Source of the DNA: an uncultured delta proteobacterium
GTDB taxonomy: Bacteria > Myxococcota_A > Polyangia > Fen-1088
Assembly (NCBI GenBank): GCA_963796685.1
Contig: CAWCMR010000020.1
Span: 1 to 64,000 of the forward strand
DNA length: 64,000 nt
Direction: 5' to 3'
The position numbers and the translations under genes were made by a program. The stretch's first letter is position 1. Every line of letters starts with the position of its first letter. The notes under the pieces were generated by a model. The model was not told the origin of the DNA. It saw nothing but the letters and a program-made list of their open reading frames with translations, and searched no databases. Shown one piece after another: positions 5,051 to 61,594 of the stretch.

Positions 5051-6114
5051 GGCAACCTCCGCATGCGGCTAAGGCGCAGGAGCATCTCCAGCACCAGCAC
5101 GGCGAGAGCCGGCCACAGGAAGCTGGGATAGAGCTCGGCCCACAGCACGCCCCGATCCTTGATGCGCGACTTTTCCAGATCCTCGAGGATGCTCTGGAAG
5201 CGTTTGACCAGGGCGCCGGTGTCCGTGGCCAGGTAGGGCGAGCCGCCGGTCATGGAGGCGATCTCCTCCAGCAGCTTGGGATTCACGGGATAACGCTGGC
5301 CTCCCCCTTGCGCGTCGTCGTCCTCGGCCACGCTGTTACGTGAGCCGGCCAGGATGGTGTATATCTTCACGCCCAGTTTCTGCGCGAAGGTGGCGGCTTG
5401 GATGGGCGAGATGTTGCCCGCGTTGTTGTCCCCGTCGGTGAGCAGGATGATGACCTTCGAGCGCGCCTCGGATTTGCGCAGCCTGGCCAGGGCCACGCCG
5501 AGCCCGTTGCCGATGGCGGTGCCGCGGCCGTCGACGATGCCCGAGCGCAGGTCGGCCACCATGCGCAGGAGCGTGCCGTGGTCGAGGGTGAGCGGCGCGT
5601 AGGTGTAGGCCTCGCGTCCAAAGATGACGAGCCCGATGCGGTCGCTCGGCCGGCGGCGCACGAAGTCCGCGATGACGGCCTTGGCCGCTTCGAGGCGATT
5701 GGGCTGAAGGTCGCGCTCTTCCATCGAGCCGGACATGTCGAGGGCGACGACGATGTCGATCCCCTCCAGCTCCAGGTTGTCCTCGCGCGACGAGGTCTGC
5801 GGCCGCGCCAGGGCCAGGCCGAGCAGGGCGATGCCGAACAGGCGCAGCGCCACGGGCAAGTCGCGCAGGCGGGACACCAGGCCGACCCGCTGCGCGCCGA
5901 GCTCGCTGGCCCGCGAGTGCACGAGGAACGCGGGGCGCGCGCGACGGACGCCGAGCCAGAGGGCGAGCACGAGCAGGATGGGCAAAGCGGCGAGGAGGAG
6001 GGGATGGCCGAAGCGGAAGGTGATGAGGCTGCGGAACATCCACCCGTAGACGAGCGCGGTCGGGAGGAACAGGACGGCCAGCATCCGGTAGGGGATCTTT
6101 CCGCGCGCCGACAT
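5047..6114 (-). CDS. batA: BatA VWA domain protein
   Basis: ALARPQ, DIVVALDMSGSM, DRIGLVIFG, GTAIGNGL, ILLTDGDNNAG. Start placed at ATG 6114 because the longer ORF extends through a palindromic insert. Confidence 0.88.
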   Translation of the reverse strand: MSARGKIPYRMLAVLFLPTALVYGWMFRSLITFRFGHPLLLAALPILLVLALWLGVRRARPAFLVHSRASELGAQRVGLVSRLRDLPVALRLFGIALLGLALARPQTSSREDNLELEGIDIVVALDMSGSMEERDLQPNRLEAAKAVIADFVRRRPSDRIGLVIFGREAYTYAPLTLDHGTLLRMVADLRSGIVDGRGTAIGNGLGVALARLRKSEARSKVIILLTDGDNNAGNISPIQAATFAQKLGVKIYTILAGSRNSVAEDDDAQGGGQRYPVNPKLLEEIASMTGGSPYLATDTGALVKRFQSILEDLEKSRIKDRGVLWAELYPSFLWPALAVLVLEMLLRLSRMRRLP

Positions 6115-30912: not shown

Positions 30913-31002
30913 ATGGGAACCCTGGGAGGGTTCCCAAACCCTCCCGCGACGCTTCGCTGCCGGCAGAGCCGGCAGGCTCCGCACGCGTCTGTCTGGCCCG
31001 CA
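30913..31002 (+). repeat. REP-like family copy
   Basis: ATGGGAACCCT-GGG-AGGGTTCCCA hairpin followed by a CTGCCGGC-AGA-GCCGGCAG hairpin; matches 13078-13158. Confidence 0.8.
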
Positions 31003-38898: not shown

Positions 38899-40002
38899 TT
38901 ACTTGGTGGGCAGCGCGACGGGACCGGCCCCGGCGATGAGCACGCGCTCGATCTCGCCCGCCGGGCCGCTGGCGCCGCCGGACTTCCATCGCTGCAGCGT
39001 GTGCCCGCTGGTATTCAACACGACGAGCTCGCTGCCGGTAGCCACCCACACCCGCCCCGACGAGTCGACGGCGATGTCGTTGATTCCGTTCGTGGAGATG
39101 GCTTCGCTCGTGCTCGCGTCGCCCGCTCCGTCGAGGCGGGCGATGACGATGGCCCTGCCGTCGGCGCTCGTGCCGGCAAGCAGGTTGGCTGCCCCCGCGC
39201 TTTGCAAATGGGCTTTGTCCGCGCGCCAGTGCGAGGGCTGCCAACCCGCTTCCGTGAACACGAAGCAGCCCGCGAGGTAGCAGGCGATCAACCCTGGTTT
39301 CGAGACGAGCAAGGAGAGCGGAAAGGCAGGCGCCGACTTTGTCTCGGTGTCGGCCTGGTCGTTCTCGGACACTGCGGGCGAATCGAGTCGGGTCCACCTA
39401 CCACCCGTCACGCGCCAAAGGCCGTTCCAACTCGCCACCCATACCGCGCGTCCGTCGGTCACGATGTCGAGCAGACGGTTGTCGTCGAAGGCGCCCGCGA
39501 GGCTGTTGCGGGTGCGAGTGGTCTTCCAGCGGATGCCGTCGTAGCGCACGACGCTGCCGTGGTCGTCGTTGATGGTCCACACGTCGGTGGGCGAGCGGAT
39601 GGCCAGCTTGGCGAAGCTCTCATGGTTGAGGGTGACCGCCTTTCCATGGACGATTCGCACCACGCCCTCGCCGCGCAAGCTTGCCCACAGCATGCCTTCG
39701 CCGTCGAGCTGCATGTCGCGCAAGGTGGCCTGCGTCTTCAGGACCGTGGATATCTCGCCGTTCCGCAGGCGCTGGATGCCGACGCCTTTCACGAAGACAT
39801 AGGCGGCGTCCGTATGTTCGTCGACTGCCACCTCGGGCGCGGCGTCTGCAACCGCGGGCCGCGGGGCCGAGCTCTTGCGCTTGGACTGCGACTTGCCGTG
39901 GCTGCTCGACATGGCCCCGAAGAGCCCGACGGCGACCACCAGCAGCCCAAGCGAAACCCTCGGACCAGGTTGGCCGCGTCGACGGTGCTCGCTCCTCCAC
40001 AT
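38899..40002 (-). CDS. Exported beta-propeller-like protein
   Basis: N-terminal hydrophobic segment; repeats LD.EG.LWA, IVTDGRAVWVASWNGLWR, DIAVDSSGRVWVAT. Confidence 0.65.
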   Translation of the reverse strand: MWRSEHRRRGQPGPRVSLGLLVVAVGLFGAMSSSHGKSQSKRKSSAPRPAVADAAPEVAVDEHTDAAYVFVKGVGIQRLRNGEISTVLKTQATLRDMQLDGEGMLWASLRGEGVVRIVHGKAVTLNHESFAKLAIRSPTDVWTINDDHGSVVRYDGIRWKTTRTRNSLAGAFDDNRLLDIVTDGRAVWVASWNGLWRVTGGRWTRLDSPAVSENDQADTETKSAPAFPLSLLVSKPGLIACYLAGCFVFTEAGWQPSHWRADKAHLQSAGAANLLAGTSADGRAIVIARLDGAGDASTSEAISTNGINDIAVDSSGRVWVATGSELVVLNTSGHTLQRWKSGGASGPAGEIERVLIAGAGPVALPTK

Positions 40003-40024
40003 CGCGGCAGTATATACCTATCGA

Positions 40025-40337
40025 AATGGGAACCCTGGGAGGGTTCCCAACCCCTCCCGCGCTCTGGCTTCGCCGGGCAAAGCCCGGCTCCGCCTACGCG
40101 GTAATGGGAACCCTGGGAGGCTCGGCACCCGCCAGCCCGCCCTACCACCCCCGCGCTACGCGCGGCCTCGCCAACCCCTCCCGCGCTCTGGCGGAGGCGC
40201 GAGGGGCGCGTCCGAAGGACGCGAGGGGGAGGGCGTGGAGGTGTAGGTCCCGAAGCACCGACGAAGTCGGTGGGCAAAGCCCGGCTCCGCCTACGCGGTA
40301 ATGGGAACCCTGGGAGGCTCGGCACCCGCCAGCCCGC
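40025..40337 (+). repeat. Mosaic array of REP-like units (left part; third unit split by the transposon)
   Basis: AATGGGAACCCTGGGAGG units at 40025, 40103 and 40300, with GGGCAAAGCCCGGCTCCGCCTACGCGGT linkers. Confidence 0.85.
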
Positions 40338-40461
40338 GGCTTTGCCCAATGATTGAGCTTGACGCAGGAATTGCTGGGCAGGCGGGGGAATTATTGGGCA
40401 GACGTGATGCTGAACGGATGACGCGTAGCTGTGACTGGCGGGTGGGCGGTAGGGTTGAGCC

Positions 40462-41115
40462 ATGGTGGACATCTACGGCTTCCTGGTCGCCGTCCTCGAC
40501 CATTGGATCGGACTCATGAGCGGCATAGTCGCGCTTGTGTTCGCAATATGGCTTGACCGTACCAAACGGGCGTCAATTCCATCAAAGGTCTTCTGGGGAA
40601 TCGGAATCCTGTGCATTTTTGGAGCTTTCTATCAGACCTGGAAAGACGAGCATGTTGCACGTCTCAAAGCAGATGACGGTCCAAGGCTGGTCGGAGAATT
40701 ATCTGCCTTCTTTGAGTTTGGACCTGGAGAGTTGGACGGTGGGCCGGTAGTGGCTGTTTTGATGAAAATACGTAACCTCGGAACTCCAAGCAGCGCGGAC
40801 GCCTACCGGGTTTCCTTCAAGCTAGGTAACGCGGAGCGAACCATGGATATTGTCGTTGGTGATTCGCAAGAGAAGGTTGTTACGACCTTGAAGTCACGAG
40901 GATACAGGTCGACAGCAATGGACGTGGCTCTTCCCCTGCATTTTCCCGCAATCCAGCGAGGAGAAACGCTGAGCGGATACATCCTGGTCACGACCGGAGA
41001 GCTGACAAAAACAGAATTTGAGCAAGGCGAGCTGACGGTCGGATTCCGAGACGTCCTTGGACAACGGCATTTTGCGTCTGGCTCTTATCGAACCATGGCA
41101 AAACTCGGGCCGTGA
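40462..41115 (+). CDS. Transposon cargo: hypothetical protein with two N-terminal TM helices
   Basis: 217 aa: HWIGLMSG, FYQTWKDEH, then a beta-sandwich-like IRNLGTPS region. Confidence 0.7.
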   Translation: MVDIYGFLVAVLDHWIGLMSGIVALVFAIWLDRTKRASIPSKVFWGIGILCIFGAFYQTWKDEHVARLKADDGPRLVGELSAFFEFGPGELDGGPVVAVLMKIRNLGTPSSADAYRVSFKLGNAERTMDIVVGDSQEKVVTTLKSRGYRSTAMDVALPLHFPAIQRGETLSGYILVTTGELTKTEFEQGELTVGFRDVLGQRHFASGSYRTMAKLGP

Positions 41116-41382
41116 CTACGTTGGTCCTCTCCCGCAGTGCGGGCACGTCCCCTTGACCGGGTACTTCCCAGCGAGCAGGTCGTCCATCCCGACTCCGGCA
41201 AGGCGCGCTACCCGCACCATCATGGATGCGCTCACAGGGTCGTGGCCTAGGAGAACGCCGCGCATGCTCTCGTAGGTGAAGTGCAGGGCCTTGGCAAGCA
41301 GGTCGATCTTGCCGAAGCGAATCCGCAGGAAGCGGAGCGCTACCCGAACATTCCGTTGCTCCTCTGGCGTGAGGTCGCTCAT
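41116..41382 (-). CDS. Small XRE-like HTH protein with C-terminal CPHCG knuckle
   Basis: MSDLTPEEQRNVRVALRFLR...LAKAL....SM..VL.G....SASM..RVARLAGV.MDDLL.G...TCPHCG; starts 5 nt after the transposase stop. Confidence 0.7.
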   Translation of the reverse strand: MSDLTPEEQRNVRVALRFLRIRFGKIDLLAKALHFTYESMRGVLLGHDPVSASMMVRVARLAGVGMDDLLAGKYPVKGTCPHCGRGPT

Positions 41383-41387
41383 GCCGC

Positions 41388-42614
41388 TCACGCCGCCACC
41401 GTTCCCAAGAAGCTCGGCTCGATGCCCAGCCGGTGCATCGCCTGGACGAGCACCGAAAGGTTCTGGCAGAGCGCCTTGCACAGAATCTCGTTCACCTGGG
41501 CGGTGAAGGTCTTGGAGCGCACGGCATGACCGAACTTCCGCTTGACCGCCGAGAAGGTGCTCTCGATGTTGTTGCGCTTTCCGTAGGCGGCCAGGAACTC
41601 CTCTTGCTTGAACATGAAGACGGCGTGCATCTTGCGCCACGCGGGCGAGCCGTCGCTCTGGCTGTTGACCTTGAAGGGCACGAAGGGAGCGGCGCCAGCG
41701 GCTTCGATGGCGGCGAGGTTTTCGTGCGCGAGGTACGCCTTGTCGGCTGAAACCTCGGCGATGCCGAAGTGCTGCTTGGTGGCTGCGACCAATCCCGGAA
41801 GCTCGGGGCAGTCCGCGCCTTCGCTCGTGGTGACCTTGACCGATGTGATGACCTGGGTCGTGGTCCCGACCATCGCGTGCGCCTTGAGCCACGTCGCCTT
41901 CTTCATTTCCTTCCCGTACTTGGCATCGAACCAGCGGCGGTAGACGGCGGCGCTGAAACCCGTGGAGTCGACCGCGAAGCTCGTCTCGATGCTCGCCAGC
42001 GGCGCCGCGCTCTTCTCGATGAGGCTGGTCAGGATGGCCGTCATCTCAGGCTTCTCGAACGCGGCCAAGACGCTGTTGTAGTGCGGGGTTCGGGTCATGT
42101 TGCCAGCTTCGGCGCTGTCTTTGATGTCCGTGCTCGCTCGGCGAGCCGACATCGTGGTGTAGACTTTCAAGACCATCGCGTAGACCGCATCGGACATTGG
42201 GATCGGCTTGGGACCGCGGCCAGGGTGGGCTGGCGTCTGGATACCGTCGCAGAGGCCACGTAGCAGGGCCTGGACGGTCTCCTTCTCACCGACCTGGGCA
42301 GCGTTGTAGGCCGACCAGTCGCGCTCGGTGGTGTGGCTGTAGCTGAAAGATTGGGTCACGGTCTGGTTTCCGTGGGAGTCGGTCTCGACGGTCTGCGCGA
42401 ACGAAATCGCCCACTGGTGCTTGCAGCGGCAGCGGCGAAGCTCGAAGTCGGGACAGGTGCAGGTCTTTGCGGCGGTATTGACGACGTAGCCGCCAGCGTT
42501 ATGCGTCTGCGATGGGACAAGCCAGGTCACGCCAGCGATGTGCTTGATCCGGCGGTCGTTGGAAAGGATGCGTCCGCGCTCTTGCCGAAGGTCCGTTTCG
42601 TTCGTCGTGTCCAT
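41388..42614 (-). CDS. SWIM zinc finger + DDE transposase (IS5 family, IS903-like)
   Basis: SWIM CTCPDF....CKH; DDE FAVDSTG, WLKAH, SADKAY, Y.KRNNIESTFS.VKRKFG..VRSK....QVNE. Confidence 0.9.
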   Translation of the reverse strand: MDTTNETDLRQERGRILSNDRRIKHIAGVTWLVPSQTHNAGGYVVNTAAKTCTCPDFELRRCRCKHQWAISFAQTVETDSHGNQTVTQSFSYSHTTERDWSAYNAAQVGEKETVQALLRGLCDGIQTPAHPGRGPKPIPMSDAVYAMVLKVYTTMSARRASTDIKDSAEAGNMTRTPHYNSVLAAFEKPEMTAILTSLIEKSAAPLASIETSFAVDSTGFSAAVYRRWFDAKYGKEMKKATWLKAHAMVGTTTQVITSVKVTTSEGADCPELPGLVAATKQHFGIAEVSADKAYLAHENLAAIEAAGAAPFVPFKVNSQSDGSPAWRKMHAVFMFKQEEFLAAYGKRNNIESTFSAVKRKFGHAVRSKTFTAQVNEILCKALCQNLSVLVQAMHRLGIEPSFLGTVAA

Positions 42615-42622
42615 GTGGATAG

Positions 42623-42642
42623 TATTACCTAGCTAAGTAATA
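42623..42642. promoter_or_regulatory. Palindromic operator in the divergent transposase/Zn-ribbon promoter
   Basis: TATTACCTAGCTAAGTAATA is an 18/20 palindrome lying 8 nt from the transposase ATG. Confidence 0.55.
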
Positions 42643-42719
42643 TTAGCAAGGACAATCTACAGAGCAATAGTAGAAAGGTTTACTTTACTACGGAGGAGCG
42701 GGCGTGTATCCTGGCGGGC

Positions 42720-42902
42720 ATGGCTGAAATCATGATCAAGGTGCCGGGCTACCGCTGCGAGCGCTGCGGCCACGAGTGGGTGGCCAGGGCGTCGCGCAAC
42801 GCGCCGCAAGCGAAGAAAGGCGAGACTGCGCGCCCAAGGCTGTGCCCATCATGCAAGAGTGCATGGTGGGACGTAGCCCCGAAGAGCGAAGCGAAAAAGT
42901 AA
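42720..42902 (+). CDS. 60-aa zinc-ribbon protein
   Basis: YRCERCGHEW.AR...PRLCPSCKSAWWD (CxxC...CxxC); divergent from the transposase. Confidence 0.75.
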   Translation: MAEIMIKVPGYRCERCGHEWVARASRNAPQAKKGETARPRLCPSCKSAWWDVAPKSEAKK

Positions 42903-42910
42903 CCCGTTGG

Positions 42911-44035
42911 TTACTTCACAAGACGGATAGAATCTCCTGGATTTCCAGGCGTCGGTTGTATCCGATACGACGCAAGCAACTCCGGCGTGTTCCAGTGGGC
43001 GAGATCGGCCAACTGGTTGACGGTGTATCCGAGGGTTTCTGTGTGGAAGTCGAGCATCTCTTGAAGCGTTCTCGGTATTTCGCGAGCTGGCTCCAACTCT
43101 GCTGGCTCACGCATTCGATACCCCATTTTTGCAATCTGAACCCATAGGTATCGAGCTTGCGGTTCTGTTATGGTGCCGAGATTCTCGGCCCGTTTTAGAA
43201 GGGCCTGCATTGATACCTTCCAATAGGGCTTCATCGAGGCCAGCTTTTGCACGGTAAGATTGTGGAGTTGGCTTCGAATTTCTTCGGCCGGCATCAGGAA
43301 CTCGGCAGCAAAGGCGTTGGCCTCGTCTTCGATGTGAGGTGACAGCGTGGCATGCATAACCATGTGCCCGATCTCGTGGGCGAGCGTCAGGCGTTCGCGA
43401 TCTTGGGGGATTGTCTCATTCACAAAGAACATCGGCGGCAAGCCGGGAACCCACCTGCTTACAGCATCAACAAGGTTGGTCCCGAAAGCGAACCTCACGA
43501 CTACCCCGCCGGCCTCCTCGATGGCGTCAACCACACTCGCGACTGGCCCCTTTGGCAAGTTCCATGAGCTTCTCACCGCATGTGCGATCTCGGATGGAGA
43601 TCCTCCGAACTCCTCCGGATCCAATCGAGGAAACTTCTCTTCTTCAAGTTCGGCGCTCTTGAGGAAAGAAAATACGTGGGCCATGCGGATGTTTATCTGA
43701 GCATGGATGCGCGCCATTTCCCGCGCTGATGTCGCCTTACGCTTGCGATGATAGAACTCGCTCGTGCTCGGCCCAAAGATGCGGAACTCTTGCGAGAAGA
43801 AGCTCTCGGGATAGTCAAGCTCCGTGGCCAATGTCGACACCAGTTGTAGGGGAACTGGAGCATGTCCAGTCTCTATCTTCGATAGCCTTCCTTGAGAAAT
43901 GTTCAGTCTTTCCGCAAGCTCCTTCTGTGTCATCCCGCGCGACTCTCGCGCAAGGACGACCATCTCGGGTGTTATCGATTTCCAGAATCCGCCATTCGAG
44001 TCGTTCCCGTCGTCACTTCTTCTTGTTTGATTCAT
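42911..44035 (-). CDS. XRE-HTH + ImmA/IrrE (M78) zinc metallopeptidase
   Basis: LARESRGMTQKELAERLNISQGRLSKIETG; RERLTLAHEIGH; EDEANAFAAEFLMP; WKVSMQAL. Exact start uncertain. Confidence 0.9.
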   Translation of the reverse strand: MNQTRRSDDGNDSNGGFWKSITPEMVVLARESRGMTQKELAERLNISQGRLSKIETGHAPVPLQLVSTLATELDYPESFFSQEFRIFGPSTSEFYHRKRKATSAREMARIHAQINIRMAHVFSFLKSAELEEEKFPRLDPEEFGGSPSEIAHAVRSSWNLPKGPVASVVDAIEEAGGVVVRFAFGTNLVDAVSRWVPGLPPMFFVNETIPQDRERLTLAHEIGHMVMHATLSPHIEDEANAFAAEFLMPAEEIRSQLHNLTVQKLASMKPYWKVSMQALLKRAENLGTITEPQARYLWVQIAKMGYRMREPAELEPAREIPRTLQEMLDFHTETLGYTVNQLADLAHWNTPELLASYRIQPTPGNPGDSIRLVK

Positions 44036-44642
44036 CTGTTCTATCGACATCCGCGGCCTCCTGTTTTCTAGGCTTGACGCGGCGTTTTGCGCCCTTATCT
44101 GGTTGTTCCTGTGGAATCGGAATAACTTGTGCCCCACTGGGCGGTACGATCTGCATTGTCCAGTGCGGAGGGTTCTTCCCGTTGGGACAGGTAAGCCATA
44201 TCTCTGACGTCAAAAGCTCCGCTTGCTTCTCCTGTCGATATCCAAGGTGTAGGTTCGTTGGATCTGGAACTCCTTCCAAGGTGAGCTGACCTGCGTTCTT
44301 CAAGAAGGAAAACGTTTGCTGGGTCATCACGTTGGAGGTGCGAAAGTTTCGATCGAGCTTCTTTAACTTGATCTGGTACTTGTCTTCAACCGTCGCCACG
44401 AAGAGTTTCGATTTTCTCTCGAAGCACCTCACCCCTTCCGGATTCCCATCTGGGAAAGCCTGCTCCATATGCCACCGCATGAGATCGTGGATGAGCGATG
44501 CAATGGACCTGCTGGACATCTTGTGCCGAAGTCCCCGATAGTCCGCGACGAACTCTTTGAGTGCCGCGTGGACCACATCATGAAGCCTCGTAAGAACAGG
44601 CTTCAGATCCTTCTTCGCGGTAGCCACAGAACGAACCATCAC
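44013..44642 (-). CDS. Hypothetical protein co-transcribed with the HTH-peptidase (candidate toxin)
   Basis: 209 aa, stop abuts or overlaps the peptidase start; motif KKLD....SN..TQQ..F....Q.......NLHLGY; GAGGTG RBS. Confidence 0.75.
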   Translation of the reverse strand: MMVRSVATAKKDLKPVLTRLHDVVHAALKEFVADYRGLRHKMSSRSIASLIHDLMRWHMEQAFPDGNPEGVRCFERKSKLFVATVEDKYQIKLKKLDRNFRTSNVMTQQTFSFLKNAGQLTLEGVPDPTNLHLGYRQEKQAELLTSEIWLTCPNGKNPPHWTMQIVPPSGAQVIPIPQEQPDKGAKRRVKPRKQEAADVDRTDESNKKK

Positions 44643-44836
44643 TCACCTCAAATTTGTTTCATCCAAGGTACCATGGGAACACACAAACGCGCATAAAATA
44701 TTCCTAAAATATTCCATGTTGGTGTAAGTATTTGTTTTTGAAGTCTTTTTTCGCATCGCCGCAATGACATTTGGTACTATTGCGTTATGCTACCACGCCA
44801 TCTTGCGGATAGTCAGAATCGCGAGACAATGGCGAT

Positions 44837-45229
44837 ATGAGAAAGGTAGCTTGGCTTGCGCTGCCGCTGATCTTTGGCTGCACCACTCTCTCTCCGGAGC
44901 AACGCCGGGAACGAGACGAGGAGAATCAGCGGAGGGCCATGCGGCAGGAAATGGCCCAAGAACAGGCCAACAGGTGTCTTCAGGGGATGCCGATCCTTCG
45001 TGGCGATCCTCCCTACCAGTACCGCGTGATACAGGTGATCGAGGCTCAAGATGAAAGGGAACTCGTACAGGCTGCCTGCCAAGCGGGAGCGGATGCCGTG
45101 ATCTCAATCTTCACAGACAACGAAGAGACCACCACTACCGTCGGGGGCGGCCCCTATTTCGTTCGGGGTCGAACGAAGACCAAACACGCGCCGACGTTCG
45201 TCGGTCGCCTCATCGTGTACGCGCGGTGA
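44837..45229 (+). CDS. Small lipoprotein (YbjQ/RcsF-like GADAVI motif)
   Basis: Lipobox LIFGC; PYQY..I..I....L...A...GADAVI. Confidence 0.65.
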   Translation: MRKVAWLALPLIFGCTTLSPEQRRERDEENQRRAMRQEMAQEQANRCLQGMPILRGDPPYQYRVIQVIEAQDERELVQAACQAGADAVISIFTDNEETTTTVGGGPYFVRGRTKTKHAPTFVGRLIVYAR

Positions 45230-45317
45230 GCCTCGTTTTCTGAATTATTGGGCAGCCCGCCAAATTCGCCCGAATTAAAAGGCAGCTAGGCCGAAAAGCG
45301 AATCATTGGGCAAAGCC

Positions 45318-45430
45318 CCAGCCCGCCCTACCACCCCCGCGCTACGCGCGGCCTCGCCAACCCCTCGGCCCCTCCCCGCCACCCTCCTCCCCGCTCGCTT
45401 CGCTCGGCCTCGCGCGCTCTGGCTTCGCCA
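45318..45430 (+). repeat. Right part of the REP-like unit split by the transposon
   Basis: CCAGCCCGCCCTACCACCCCCGCGCTACGCGCGGCCTCGCCAACCCCTC is identical to the continuation of the intact unit at 40103-40180. Confidence 0.85.
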
Positions 45431-45436
45431 TCGCGC

Positions 45437-46336
45437 CTAGGCGTTGCCGGCTCGGTAGGCGCCGGGCGAAACGCCGAAGCTCTTGCGAAAGACCTTGCAG
45501 AAGTAGTTGGCGTCACCGAACCCGCACTGCTCGGCGACTTTCTTGACCGTGAATCGGCTGCCGGCGATCAGCCGCATGGCCTCTTCAAGCCGTAGGCTGG
45601 CCAGGTAGCGACCGGGCGAGATCCCGCGCACTTTCTCGAACTGTCTGGAAAAGTGGAAGCGGCTCATCTTTGCGACACGGGCCATGTCGTCGACCCCGAT
45701 GGGCCGGGCGAGATTGAGCTGGCAGAACTTCTCGACGTCCAGGACGAAGGCCGGCACCGGTTGCGCCGACGGGGAGAGCCCACCGGCGACCTCCGTGCTC
45801 TGGCTCTGCAATGCCATGACGATGGCCCAGGCCAGCTCGGAAGATCGGTAGGACGATTCAATCTTGCCTTCAAGGGCGGTCGCGCACGCCTCCGCGGCGC
45901 GCTCCAGTGCGGGCGAGCTCTCGGCAAGCGCGATGATCGGGCCCGACTTCTCGATCATCCCCCGAACACCCCGCACGGCTTCGATCCCGCTCAGCAGGAC
46001 GTAGAAGAACTCCCAGCGTTCACCTTCCTCGATCCAATAGCGGTGCTTGTGCGGGAAGTGGAGCAGCATGGCCTGTCCCGGCTCCACGAACATTTGGTGG
46101 TCCTGGAATCGAAGTCTCCCCCGCCCACTCAGGGTGTACTGGATCAGCGCGAGCTCGGCATTGCCGCGCCGCCAGCCATCCCAATCGTAGCTGGGATCGT
46201 TCTCCTCTTTGAAGCCCGCGCTGTAGATGAGCGCTGGCAAAGGTCCGTGCAGGTTGGGAAACAGCAGGGTCTCCCGATGGCCCATTTGGTAGAGCCGCTC
46301 GATGCCTGAAAGACCCGTCAGCGTGGCTCCACTCAT
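45437..46336 (-). CDS. AraC family transcriptional regulator
   Basis: N-terminal cupin (IQYTLSGRG, PGQAMLL), C-terminal MSRFHFSRQF...GF.DANYFCKVFRK.FGVSPG.YR. Start uncertain. Confidence 0.9.
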   Translation of the reverse strand: MSGATLTGLSGIERLYQMGHRETLLFPNLHGPLPALIYSAGFKEENDPSYDWDGWRRGNAELALIQYTLSGRGRLRFQDHQMFVEPGQAMLLHFPHKHRYWIEEGERWEFFYVLLSGIEAVRGVRGMIEKSGPIIALAESSPALERAAEACATALEGKIESSYRSSELAWAIVMALQSQSTEVAGGLSPSAQPVPAFVLDVEKFCQLNLARPIGVDDMARVAKMSRFHFSRQFEKVRGISPGRYLASLRLEEAMRLIAGSRFTVKKVAEQCGFGDANYFCKVFRKSFGVSPGAYRAGNA

Positions 46337-55553: not shown

Positions 55554-55947
55554 CGAGGTCGCGCGAAGCGCGGGGGAGGCAGGGTGGGAGGCAGGTGCCG
55601 AGCCTCCCAGGGTTCCCATCACCCGCGTAGGCGGAGCCGAGCTTTGCTCGGCGAAGCCAGAGCGCGGGAGGGTTTGGCGAGGTCGCGCGAAGCGCGGGGG
55701 AGGCAGGGTGGGAGGCAGGTGCCGAGCCTCCCAGGGTTCCCATCACCCGCGTAGGCGGAGCCGAGCTTTGCTCGGCGAAGCCAGAGCGCGGGAGGGTTTG
55801 GCGAGGTCGCGCGAAGCGCGGGGGAGGCAGGGTGGGAGGCAGGTGCCGAGCCTCCCAGGGTTCCCATCACCCGCGTAGGCGGAGCCGAGCTTTGCTCGGC
55901 GAAGCCAGAGCGCGGGAGGGTTTGGGAACCCTCCCAGGGTTCCCATT
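55554..55947 (-). repeat. Three tandem 124-bp copies of the REP-like family plus terminal hairpin
   Basis: GAGGTCGCGCGAAGCGCG starts at 55555, 55679 and 55803; the array ends with TGGGAACCCT-CCC-AGGGTTCCCA; it lies between convergent genes. Confidence 0.92.
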
Positions 55948-56889
55948 TCAACGAAATATCTGCTCCGCCTCCTGTTTCACCTGGCGCAGCTCATCCCAGA
56001 GCTTTTCCAGGTCGCGGGCGCGGAAGCCCAAGTACTCGCATTCGGGCGTCGCGACCAGGTGTTCGGTTTGCTCGGCGCTGGGCAGCGATTCCCGCGCCAA
56101 CATGCGGTCGATCCTCTCCGCCAGGCGAACCAAGGCCACGAGCAACGCCACCTCGCCCCCCGCCGCGAAGGCGCGTACCGGTTGGTGGTGCCAGGCCACG
56201 ATCTTGGGGATGGGATCGGGTAGCCCCCACTTGCGCAAAATGTGGGCGCCGAGCACGGCGTGATCGAAGCCCAGCACCTCGCGCTCGCGCAGGTGGATGG
56301 TGTCCACCTCGGCCATGTCGTTGCCGTGAATCTTGAGGTAGGTGGCGGGCTGGGCCTGGATGAGCAGCAATTTGCCGAAGTCGTGCAGCAGCCCCGCGAT
56401 GTAGCTGCTGGATCCCGCGTTGGCCTTGTGCAAGGCCAGCGCCCGAACCAGCGCACCGGTCGAGGCGCAGTGATCGCGAACGGCGCGGCCGATGCCGCTC
56501 ATGTCCGAGAACATGGCCATCATCGACAGGGACGTGGCGACCTCGCCCAGCGTCCGCGAGCCCAGCACCACGATGGCTTGCTTGATGGAGACGCAGGCCT
56601 CGCGCGGGCGGAAGGCCGCCGAATTGGCCAGGCGTAGGACCTTGGTCGCCAGCGCCGGGTCTTGCTCGATGATGTCTTGCAAGCGGCCGACCTCGAAGTC
56701 TTTGTCGGCGACCTGGTCGAGCACGCGCCTCGCCACTTCCGAGAACGGGCGCAGCCCTTCCAGATCGGCCAGGGCGGCCGCGAAGCTCGCGGCAGCTTGC
56801 GCGGTGATGGCAGTTGCGTCGTCCTCGCCGAACCATAGCTCTTCGAGAATCGATTCAGAGATCTTGGTCTTGCTTGCAGGCGGTGTCAT
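55948..56889 (-). CDS. HDOD domain protein
   Basis: IEQDPALATKVLRLANSA, SIKQAIVVLG, AGLLHDFGKL, E.E.LGFDHA.LG......WGLP, HH.P. Confidence 0.92.
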   Translation of the reverse strand: MTPPASKTKISESILEELWFGEDDATAITAQAAASFAAALADLEGLRPFSEVARRVLDQVADKDFEVGRLQDIIEQDPALATKVLRLANSAAFRPREACVSIKQAIVVLGSRTLGEVATSLSMMAMFSDMSGIGRAVRDHCASTGALVRALALHKANAGSSSYIAGLLHDFGKLLLIQAQPATYLKIHGNDMAEVDTIHLREREVLGFDHAVLGAHILRKWGLPDPIPKIVAWHHQPVRAFAAGGEVALLVALVRLAERIDRMLARESLPSAEQTEHLVATPECEYLGFRARDLEKLWDELRQVKQEAEQIFR

Positions 56890-61477: not shown

Positions 61478-61555
61478 AATGGGAACCCTGGGAGGCTCGG
61501 CACCCGCCAGCCCGCCCTGCCACCCCCGCGTTACGCGCGGCCTCGCCAAACCCTC
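61478..61555 (+). repeat. REP-like family copy (uninterrupted version of the transposon target)
   Basis: AATGGGAACCCTGGGAGGCTCGGCACCCGCCAGCCCGCCCTGCCACCCCCGCG...CCTCGCCAAACCCTC, directly after the rpsI stop. Confidence 0.85.
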
Positions 61556-61594
61556 GGGCTACCTGCCTCCATCTCGCGTCGACCTGCCTTCCAC

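Follow-up and report, generated by a model that had tools for sequence, protein, structure and literature searches.

The 64,000-nucleotide stretch analysed here (the window; positions 1 to 64,000 of contig CAWCMR010000020.1, assembly GCA_963796685.1) belongs to an uncultured delta proteobacterium (Myxococcota_A; Polyangia; Fen-1088). Positions 40338-45317 are occupied by a 4980-bp transposon with terminal inverted repeats (TIRs) that are perfect over 17 bp and a target duplication of 9 bp. The element encodes a transposase, two small proteins predicted to bind DNA, and cargo proteins. It interrupts one unit of a dispersed hairpin repeat which resembles repetitive extragenic palindromes (REPs), and nearly all transposase-bearing relatives from the same genus reside in this repeat as well. 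The element and the surrounding repeat array comprise the following features.

40026..40102, plus strand: intact standard unit of the repeat, with hairpin 1 at 40028-40050, CCCGCGCTC at 40056-40064 and hairpin 2 (GCCGGGCAAAGCCCGGC) at 40072-40088
40103..40180, plus strand: intact B-type unit, identical to the interrupted unit
40271..40281, plus strand: TIR-like motif TGGGCAAAGCC, at the hairpin-2 position of the preceding unit
40300..40337, plus strand: interrupted B-type unit, left part, from sequence comparison
40329..40337, plus strand: target site duplication, left copy, CCAGCCCGC (site B), from sequence comparison
40338..45317, no strand assigned: transposon, 4980 bp, delimited by TIRs and target duplication; its sole match in the genome is itself
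40338..40354, plus strand: left TIR GGCTTTGCCCAATGATT, exact reverse complement of 45301-45317 (17/17)
40369..40401, plus strand: subterminal repeats AATTGCTGGGCAG (40369-40381) and AATTATTGGGCAG (40389-40401), from a pattern scan
45243..45255, plus strand: right-end subterminal repeat AATTATTGGGCAG, from a pattern scan
45301..45317, plus strand: right TIR AATCATTGGGCAAAGCC, pairing with the left TIR at 17/17 positions
45318..45326, plus strand: target site duplication, right copy, CCAGCCCGC, from sequence comparison
45327..45445, plus strand: right part of the interrupted unit and remaining array, from sequence comparison
61478..61557, plus strand: further member of the repeat family (others in the window at 55554-55949 and 30913-30948)

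An earlier note on this stretch had placed the transposon inside a repeat unit, and this was confirmed. Joining 40300-40337 to 45327 onward yields a unit identical to 40103-40180 at 78/78 positions and nearly identical (75/78) to 61478-61555. The transposon is single-copy in its own genome (7.31 Mb, 26 contigs). Near both ends it carries subterminal repeats of the form AATT(G/A)(C/T)TGGGCAG, for which the pattern scan gave 6 matches against 0.63 expected and which are probable extra binding sites of the transposase. TIRs of the GGCTTTGC type (one being GGCCTTGC) together with a duplication matching at 7-9 of 9 positions were found in 28 elements of 2.3-9.3 kb, drawn from 71 loci of genome collections. 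An Rfam scan of 39900-45500 revealed no RNA family at E ≤ 1. A search for junctions in sequencing runs recovered at most 0.14 of the junction words in any run, and contigs of four runs matched parts of the repeat only; because the sides of the 'skipping' joints are 20-26 nt within repeat modules, neither an empty site nor an excised form is supported by these data. Around one relative (L047, ~5820-5871 and 11557 onward) the direct repeat measures 30 bp or more (GCTCTAGCTGACCCATCAG...) in place of 9 bp, and its left-hand copy sits 22 bp away from the element end.

The repeat family covers 129 regions with 15,151 bp, corresponding to 0.21% of the genome. Its standard unit of about 79 bp consists of hairpin 1 (GGGAACCC..GGGTTCCC), a 6-nt spacer, the 9-mer CCCGCGCTC, 7 nt, hairpin 2 (GCCGGGC-AAA-GCCCGGC) and a linker, and folds as DNA into two stem-loops at -27.9 kcal/mol. 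The core of the standard unit is present in about 100-120 copies in the own genome. The family is genus-wide, with 27 to at least 95 core matches in each of five same-genus genomes. Arrays consist of head-to-tail units at periods of 78-81 bp, interspersed with further modules, among them the B-type unit interrupted here. The array in the window is intergenic. Nevertheless, of the 14 arrays that measure 230 bp or more, 9 are in a stop-free frame, the window's own intergenic array among them; long open frames are common in GC-rich DNA, so that such a frame does not decide between a genic and an extragenic location. Four of the nine look genic, with frames of 1.3-4.4 kb that extend several hundred nt beyond both sides (C25:1144305-1144705, C25:878022-878258, C15:358157-358629 and C3:23303-23537; two have an 81-bp period, a multiple of three), and possibly represent insertions into genes that keep the frame. 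Because long open frames contain some of the arrays with an 81-bp period, the term REP-like is apt in a loose sense only. No RAYT gene (Y1 transposase, PF01797) was matched in the own genome (88.6% complete); the controls matched in 6 of 14 genomes.

Relatives of the transposase were detected in 10 of 61 related genomes (E ≤ 1e-20) and at 20 metagenome loci, and in 15 of 89 genomes of the taxonomic family (E ≤ 1e-40), the window genome included. Element ends were mapped by TIR search and alignment, and at least one mapped end was required. For the same genus this resulted in 11 independent elements from genomes or matching metagenome contigs, with L116, L126 and G006_C293 merged as a single event and likewise L117 and L118. 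Copies without determined ends were left out (G004_C11 (L043), L114/L115, L120, L121, L125, L127-L131, L133), as was G006_C266 (L042), which has a 13-bp TIR pair without duplication. The repeat family hosts 10 of these 11 transposase-bearing elements, at four insertion positions.

Site A, CCCGCGCTC, spacer between hairpin 1 and hairpin 2: G010_C13, G002_C35, G002_C23, G011_C661, L117
Site A-like, repeat on the left only, no duplication: G002_C18
Site B, CCA(G/A)CCCGC, B-type unit: the element of the window, G002_C12
Site C, CCTCGGCAC, 7 nt after a variant hairpin 1: G006_C293 (= L116)
Site D, CCAAACGTC, 4 nt after hairpin 2: G004_C14 (L038, 8845-12394)

The 9-mer of site A is the hot spot with 5-6 of the 10 insertions in the repeat; site B was used twice, and sites C and D once each. 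Similarity between the flanks of different copies ends at the repeat arrays, and the copies therefore represent separate insertion events. The earlier note had proposed to collect the flanks of further copies and had named other copies at unrelated sites as the refuting case; for transposase-bearing copies this refutation fails, since their flanks are enriched in the repeat as given above. Its idea of a fixed insertion position was not borne out: insertions occupy four positions, and site B, the one hit in the window, is a minor one, common to one other copy. Six copies have the 3' side of the transposase beside the repeat head and two are oriented oppositely; a bias in orientation was dropped as a candidate because 6 versus 2 is not significant.

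Random control windows from the same loci matched the repeat family in 16 of 760 cases. Among other dispersed repeats of the own genome that resemble insertion sequences (ISs), 5 of 154 have the repeat family at an end, namely two group II intron copies, one IS110-like element and two long arrays of the repeat itself. The binomial probability of at least 10/11 at p = 0.03 is 6e-15, and for at least 6/10 at a single position out of 79 it does not exceed 7e-8. Both 9-mers are common outside the repeat (333/403 occurrences of CCCGCGCTC, 324/338 of CCAGCCCGC), and a bare preference for a 9-mer therefore fails to explain the pattern.

Three genes are considered as the core of the element.

41388..42614, minus strand: transposase, 408 aa, with an N-terminal SWIM zinc finger and a DDE_Tnp_1 domain
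41116..41382, minus strand: orf88, 88 aa, predicted XRE/Cro-type helix-turn-helix with a C-terminal CPHCG, starting 6 nt past the transposase stop
42720..42902, plus strand: putative Zn-ribbon protein, 60 aa, divergent from the transposase; its Pfam Zn-ribbon matches are weak and below the cut-off

The transposase matches PF01609 (E 1.4e-18, 67.9 bits at a cut-off of 23) and PF04434 (E 2.6e-4). The best NCBIfam model is that of the IS5 family, transpos_IS5_2 (NF033579), with 123.7 bits and thus under its cut-off of 140, and identity to annotated IS5-family transposases on plasmids is just 21-31%. At least 3475 relatives at E ≤ 1e-20 were found among 8000 scored candidates; their source label is merely 'transposase'. 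A literature search on SWIM, DDE and IS5 transposases, with ISfinder outside its range, gave nothing on the family among the papers listed. Taken jointly with the explanation by repeat targeting given below, the element is probably an autonomous cargo transposon from an uncharacterised branch of the IS5 superfamily. In Myxococcota-clade loci orf88 is kept directly downstream of the transposase (alignment of 25). The closest solved folds to its predicted structure (predicted local distance difference test, 92.4) are XRE regulators, weak but consistent hits with ClgR as the best (3f51, E 0.012, template-modelling score 0.58); the model folds as an XRE/Cro-type helix-turn-helix, and no Pfam family was matched. 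A predicted complex of transposase and orf88 scored 0.15 versus a mark of 0.32, which is evidence in neither direction. For the Zn-ribbon gene tblastn gave 38 matches in several phyla (~34 distinct elements after merging duplicate loci), nearly all of them 100-250 bp upstream of the transposase on the opposite strand; it is a conserved core gene of the whole transposon family.

We consider it likely that autonomous copies target the repeat. The element's core comprises the transposase with SWIM and DDE domains, the divergent Zn-ribbon gene and, in Myxococcota, the small helix-turn-helix gene; the TIRs start with GGCTTTGC, and 9 bp of target are duplicated upon insertion. In the Polyangia lineage, transposase-bearing copies would integrate preferentially into units of the dispersed two-hairpin repeat. 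Their hot spot is a stretch of 9 bp in the spacer that follows hairpin 1 at a distance of 6-7 nt and directly precedes hairpin 2. The data show the insertions, their duplications, their independence and their enrichment. How the site is chosen is a matter of inference: the transposase, perhaps aided by the two small proteins predicted to bind DNA, may recognise a local combination of GC-rich sequence and stem-loop geometry instead of one particular 9-mer. Landing in the repeat would be harmless and might help copies to persist. The mechanism of such targeting is unproven.

Elements from other genera were compared with this arrangement. The element of G022 splits a unit of a different dispersed repeat, with 41 other matches to its right flank and 23 to its left flank. 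Intact units of that repeat consist of a hairpin, 6-7 nt, CACCCC.., 13 nt and a second hairpin, and both the architecture and the insertion point match those of the standard unit. For G035, which was counted as a single end, 12 further copies exist of the flank's first 40 nt, and the junction lies 6 nt + 9 nt from a hairpin with a 9-bp stem. At sites A and C, in G022 and in G035, the duplicated 9-mer begins 6-7 nt after a 9-bp-stem hairpin. In G020, a 12-copy repeat begins 19-25 nt from the junction. More distant elements (L083, L103, L095, L080, L053, L060) lie in tandem or palindromic repeats.

A different way to reach the same units would be mimicry of the TIR, in which the transposase binds the tip-like GGGCAAAGCC in hairpin 2 and inserts beside it. 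IS30 and IS911 can target sequences resembling their own ends. The earlier note had drawn attention to such motifs, and TGGGCAAAGCC at 40271-40281 and GGGCAAAGCC at 40075-40084 are indeed located as claimed, the latter being hairpin 2's loop together with its 3' arm. A match of 10-11 nt is improbable by chance, as a motif matching the TIR tip at 11/13 positions within 100 bp of the insertion arose in about 1/500 control draws from the same window (empirical p 0.002). Site A stops 10 bp short of the motif, and site D, which follows hairpin 2 by 4 nt, starts 8 bp behind the motif; at least 9/10 of the motif is found at every site-A insertion with a known downstream flank. Furthermore, the interrupted unit in G022 has GGCAAAGCC in its second hairpin, three intact units carrying one- or two-base variants, and the TIR in G004 is like the hairpin of its own repeat over ~13 nt with one gap. 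Nevertheless, sites B and C are ~45-47 bp away from the motif, and since every array position lies within ~50 bp of a hairpin 2, proximity alone tells little. The hairpin-2 loop varies (AAA in 36/61 copies) with compensating stem changes between genomes, so that selection seems to act on the hairpin. The conserved 40 nt of the G035 repeat are without such a hairpin, and across the transposon family a TIR-like motif was nearby (p < 0.05) in only 5/35 elements, two of these being ends of neighbouring elements. The motif pointed out in the earlier note is thus real and unlikely to occur by chance, but it belongs to hairpin 2; binding to it is possible and unproven, and we regard mimicry as a rather unlikely basis of the insertion pattern.

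Somewhat less probable still is that the two-hairpin units of Polyangia are dedicated landing pads. The SWIM-DDE transposon would then read the geometry, a spacer 6-7 nt after a stem-loop and beside a tip-mimicking hairpin, by means of a factor acting in cis only (orf88 or the Zn-ribbon protein), and the repeat and its lodgers would have co-evolved across genera with diverged repeats. A cis-only factor, if true, would explain why autonomous copies home to the repeat and MITE-like (miniature inverted-repeat transposable element) derivatives do not.

Targeting by autonomous copies, the explanation preferred here, has to be weighed against several findings that speak against it. A TIR pattern scan of 13 same-genus genomes revealed 58 distinct ends, 51 of which are outside the repeat (MITE-like pairs, transposase-less elements and solo ends). 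Outward flanks matched the repeat in 8 cases, one of them a 13-nt match regarded as chance and the other 7 belonging to transposase-bearing copies already counted. The other scan ends are in unique DNA. They are solo ends or belong to pairs, seven of which are MITE-like with lengths of 89-99 bp and three or four of which span 1.5-2.8 kb; a few one-mismatch matches of the scan are probably false. Five metagenome contigs (L119, L122, L123, L124, L132; host unknown, transposases 58-89% identical) have one end each with a flank unlike the repeat, and G004_C13, a truncated copy without duplication, lies outside it. Site B has no hairpin 1 and the site A used in G002_C23 is 14 nt from the nearest hairpin, so that the geometry rule is not universal. 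In other genera the flanks of G084 and G088 are low-copy and that of G094 is unique. Across the transposon family, the folding energy at 36 sites from several phyla showed no difference from controls (Kolmogorov-Smirnov p 0.48), and the target consensus is only weakly GC-rich. According to the scan, the association is limited to autonomous copies; homing as suggested in the earlier note holds for these and does not extend to the TIR ends at large.

The MITE-like pairs are located as follows.

L134, 1501-1589
L151, 1501-1589
L154, 1420-1517
L161, 756-854
L164, 457-555
L178, 381-479
L180, 534-632

They have both transposon ends with perfect tips and come from unique DNA of four same-genus genomes. 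None has a 9-bp target duplication, their best direct repeats being 4-6 nt, with an offset 8-mer in one. Three of the mid-size pairs were tested; most are without duplication, and one pair of 1.9 kb has a duplication of 8/9. Possible causes of the contrast between autonomous and non-autonomous copies are a targeting factor that acts in cis, unequal survival, or a separate route by which the small elements move.

These data bear on the possibility that there is no targeting at all, and that insertion is near-random or GC-biased, with large transposase-bearing copies surviving in neutral repeats and small derivatives anywhere. The many TIR ends outside the repeat, the weak family-wide consensus and the occurrence of autonomous copies of other phyla in many contexts would fit. 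However, the concentration of 5-6 of 10 repeat insertions at the same 9 bp and of 2 at another (at most 7e-8 for six), the small share of the repeat in the genome (0.21%) and the persistence of ~149/154 other IS-like repeats outside the repeat family argue against it. Most pairs outside the repeat, moreover, are without duplications, and the sites of primary insertion may therefore not be what their flanks show. We therefore judge this explanation improbable. That the repeat flanks were carried along with the element or made by array recombination, so that the copies would not be independent, is very improbable and largely refuted: G002_C18 has the repeat on one side only and no duplication, and arrays are recombination-prone tandem repeats, but six copies have perfect or 8/9 duplications directly at the TIRs, an intact unit results when the element is removed, copies vary in the length of their arrays and in their unique flanks, and the elements differ in cargo with transposases 71-94% identical.

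Three further candidates were rejected. A general hairpin preference across the transposon family is unsupported by the folding energies, and a symmetric or specific 9-bp consensus did not emerge, as 37 sites yielded GC-richness alone. A second targeted repeat family in G094 was dropped because the strict hairpin pattern had 0 matches and the flank is unique.

REP targeting has been described for five IS families, IS3, IS110, IS4, IS256 and IS5 (Tobes and Pareja 2006, PMC1525189), and the phenomenon is therefore of a known kind. In the account given there, 10/10 copies of ISRm22 (IS4) and 4/7 and 7/14 copies of ISNm1106 (IS5) are in clustered REPs (PMC1525189). Both resemble the present case in having a DDE transposase of the same Pfam class (Transposase_11 there) and copies in clustered REPs, but as that account presents them they are simple ISs of Sinorhizobium and Neisseria, with no SWIM domain, Zn-ribbon or helix-turn-helix partner genes, or cargo (PMC1525189). 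Here, in contrast, the target is a ~79-bp two-hairpin unit in tandem arrays, and the association is seen in transposase-bearing copies only. A type 1 association demands that all or nearly all copies lie in the repeat; this compares with 10/11 for transposase-bearing copies and 7/58 for all TIR ends of the genus. IS1397 and ISKpn1 (IS3) are described as inserting into palindromic units found within bacterial interspersed mosaic elements, where the specificity is ascribed to the transposase and the repeat is seen as a safe site (PMC1525189). Repeat-specific insertion into a safe site is common to these ISs and the present element; the transposase is of another family. The palindrome loop is where IS1397 and ISKpn1 insert, and 3-4 bp are duplicated; in the present case the duplication is 9 bp long and the hot spot lies in the spacer that follows a hairpin.

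For IS621, ISPpu9 and ISPa11 (IS110) REP-specific insertion by means of a bridge or seek RNA is reported (PMC11208160, PMC11187229, PMC12288879). They share the REP target, and an IS110-like element is also present in the own genome's repeat. They differ in using an RNA-guided DEDD recombinase and in having neither TIRs nor a 9-bp duplication, while the Rfam scan found no RNA family here. A 9-bp target duplication is reported for IS903B (PMC13618097). The IS903 group (IS5) is thus similar in its DDE_Tnp_1 transposase and duplication length. Its ends begin with GGC. The elements considered here differ from that group in their size of 2.3-9.3 kb with cargo, the added SWIM domain and the partner genes. 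New are the transposon family with its partner genes and cargo and the two-hairpin tandem repeat of Polyangia, as well as the spacer geometry common to repeats of different sequence and the contrast between autonomous and non-autonomous copies.

The way in which DDE transposases locate hairpin repeats is largely unsolved, and the Polyangia lineage offers a testable case. As natural controls it has four positions of insertion, one of them a hot spot; a geometry that recurs in two genera whose repeats differ in sequence; a tip-like hairpin with natural loop variants; and two small conserved partner genes predicted to encode DNA-binding proteins.

Other mobile elements were also encountered at the repeats. 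A group II intron of 2077 bp with a reverse-transcriptase open reading frame is present in 11 copies of at least 99.76% identity in the own genome (examples outside the window: G000:C25:1381851-1383927 and C25:481403-483477). Ten of the 11 copies start directly after a GC-rich hairpin, and the eleventh is without upstream flank because of a contig end; two copies split the hot-spot 9-mer (CCCGCG|CTC, other strand, just after hairpin 2). The element at G000:C15:369743-371252 is flanked on both sides by the repeat family and has an open reading frame of 414 aa, a candidate IS110-family transposase as read by eye; it would be a third class of mobile element using the repeats. If the units were indeed landing pads, the group II intron would use the same 9 bp and the IS110-like element the arrays.

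In other phyla, element pairs from different Eremiobacterota or Acidobacteriaceae genomes (L063/L101, L059/L066, L078/L094) have the same or similar targets, the duplication GCCTCAGGT being found twice among them; either insertion at specific sites or inheritance of earlier insertions could account for this. A second hairpin motif (..TCTAAAGGACC..GGTCCTTT..) adjoins mobile-element junctions in three genomes, at G000:C8 ~379400-383700, in L170 (G012:C73) and in L046 (G094:C340); in G094 it forms no repeat family.

The remaining genes of the transposon in the window are regarded as cargo.

42911..44137, minus strand: helix-turn-helix and ImmA/IrrE (M78) peptidase protein, RmrA-like, with Pfam HTH_3 and Peptidase_M78
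44013..44642, minus strand: 209-aa protein, upstream of the RmrA-like gene
40462..41115, plus strand: 217-aa protein with a hydrophobic N-terminus and a sub-threshold DUF4131 match alone
44837..45229, plus strand: 130-aa protein, no family in Pfam, NCBIfam or PADLOC

The RmrA-like protein matches PADLOC RmrA with E 1.9e-61 and the NCBIfam spr1629 model with 109.9 bits, under the cut-off of that model. The 209-aa protein, at the RmrT position beside the RmrA-like gene, matched no family in Pfam, NCBIfam or PADLOC; by its position it is a candidate partner or toxin of the RmrA-like protein. Together the two genes look like a Rosmer-type (defence or toxin-antitoxin) pair. Helix-turn-helix peptidase cargo of a similar kind is carried by three related elements (L025 = L039, L111, L062). 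Since family members carry cargo, such as the Rosmer-like pair here, safe-site targeting may help cargo to spread, and may be one of the routes by which defence or toxin-antitoxin-like genes move through the compact genomes of soil bacteria. The 217-aa protein had no relatives in other elements by tblastn. The 130-aa protein has an N-terminus that, read by eye, is a candidate lipoprotein-like leader, and it is common to one relative, L034, with 65% identity.

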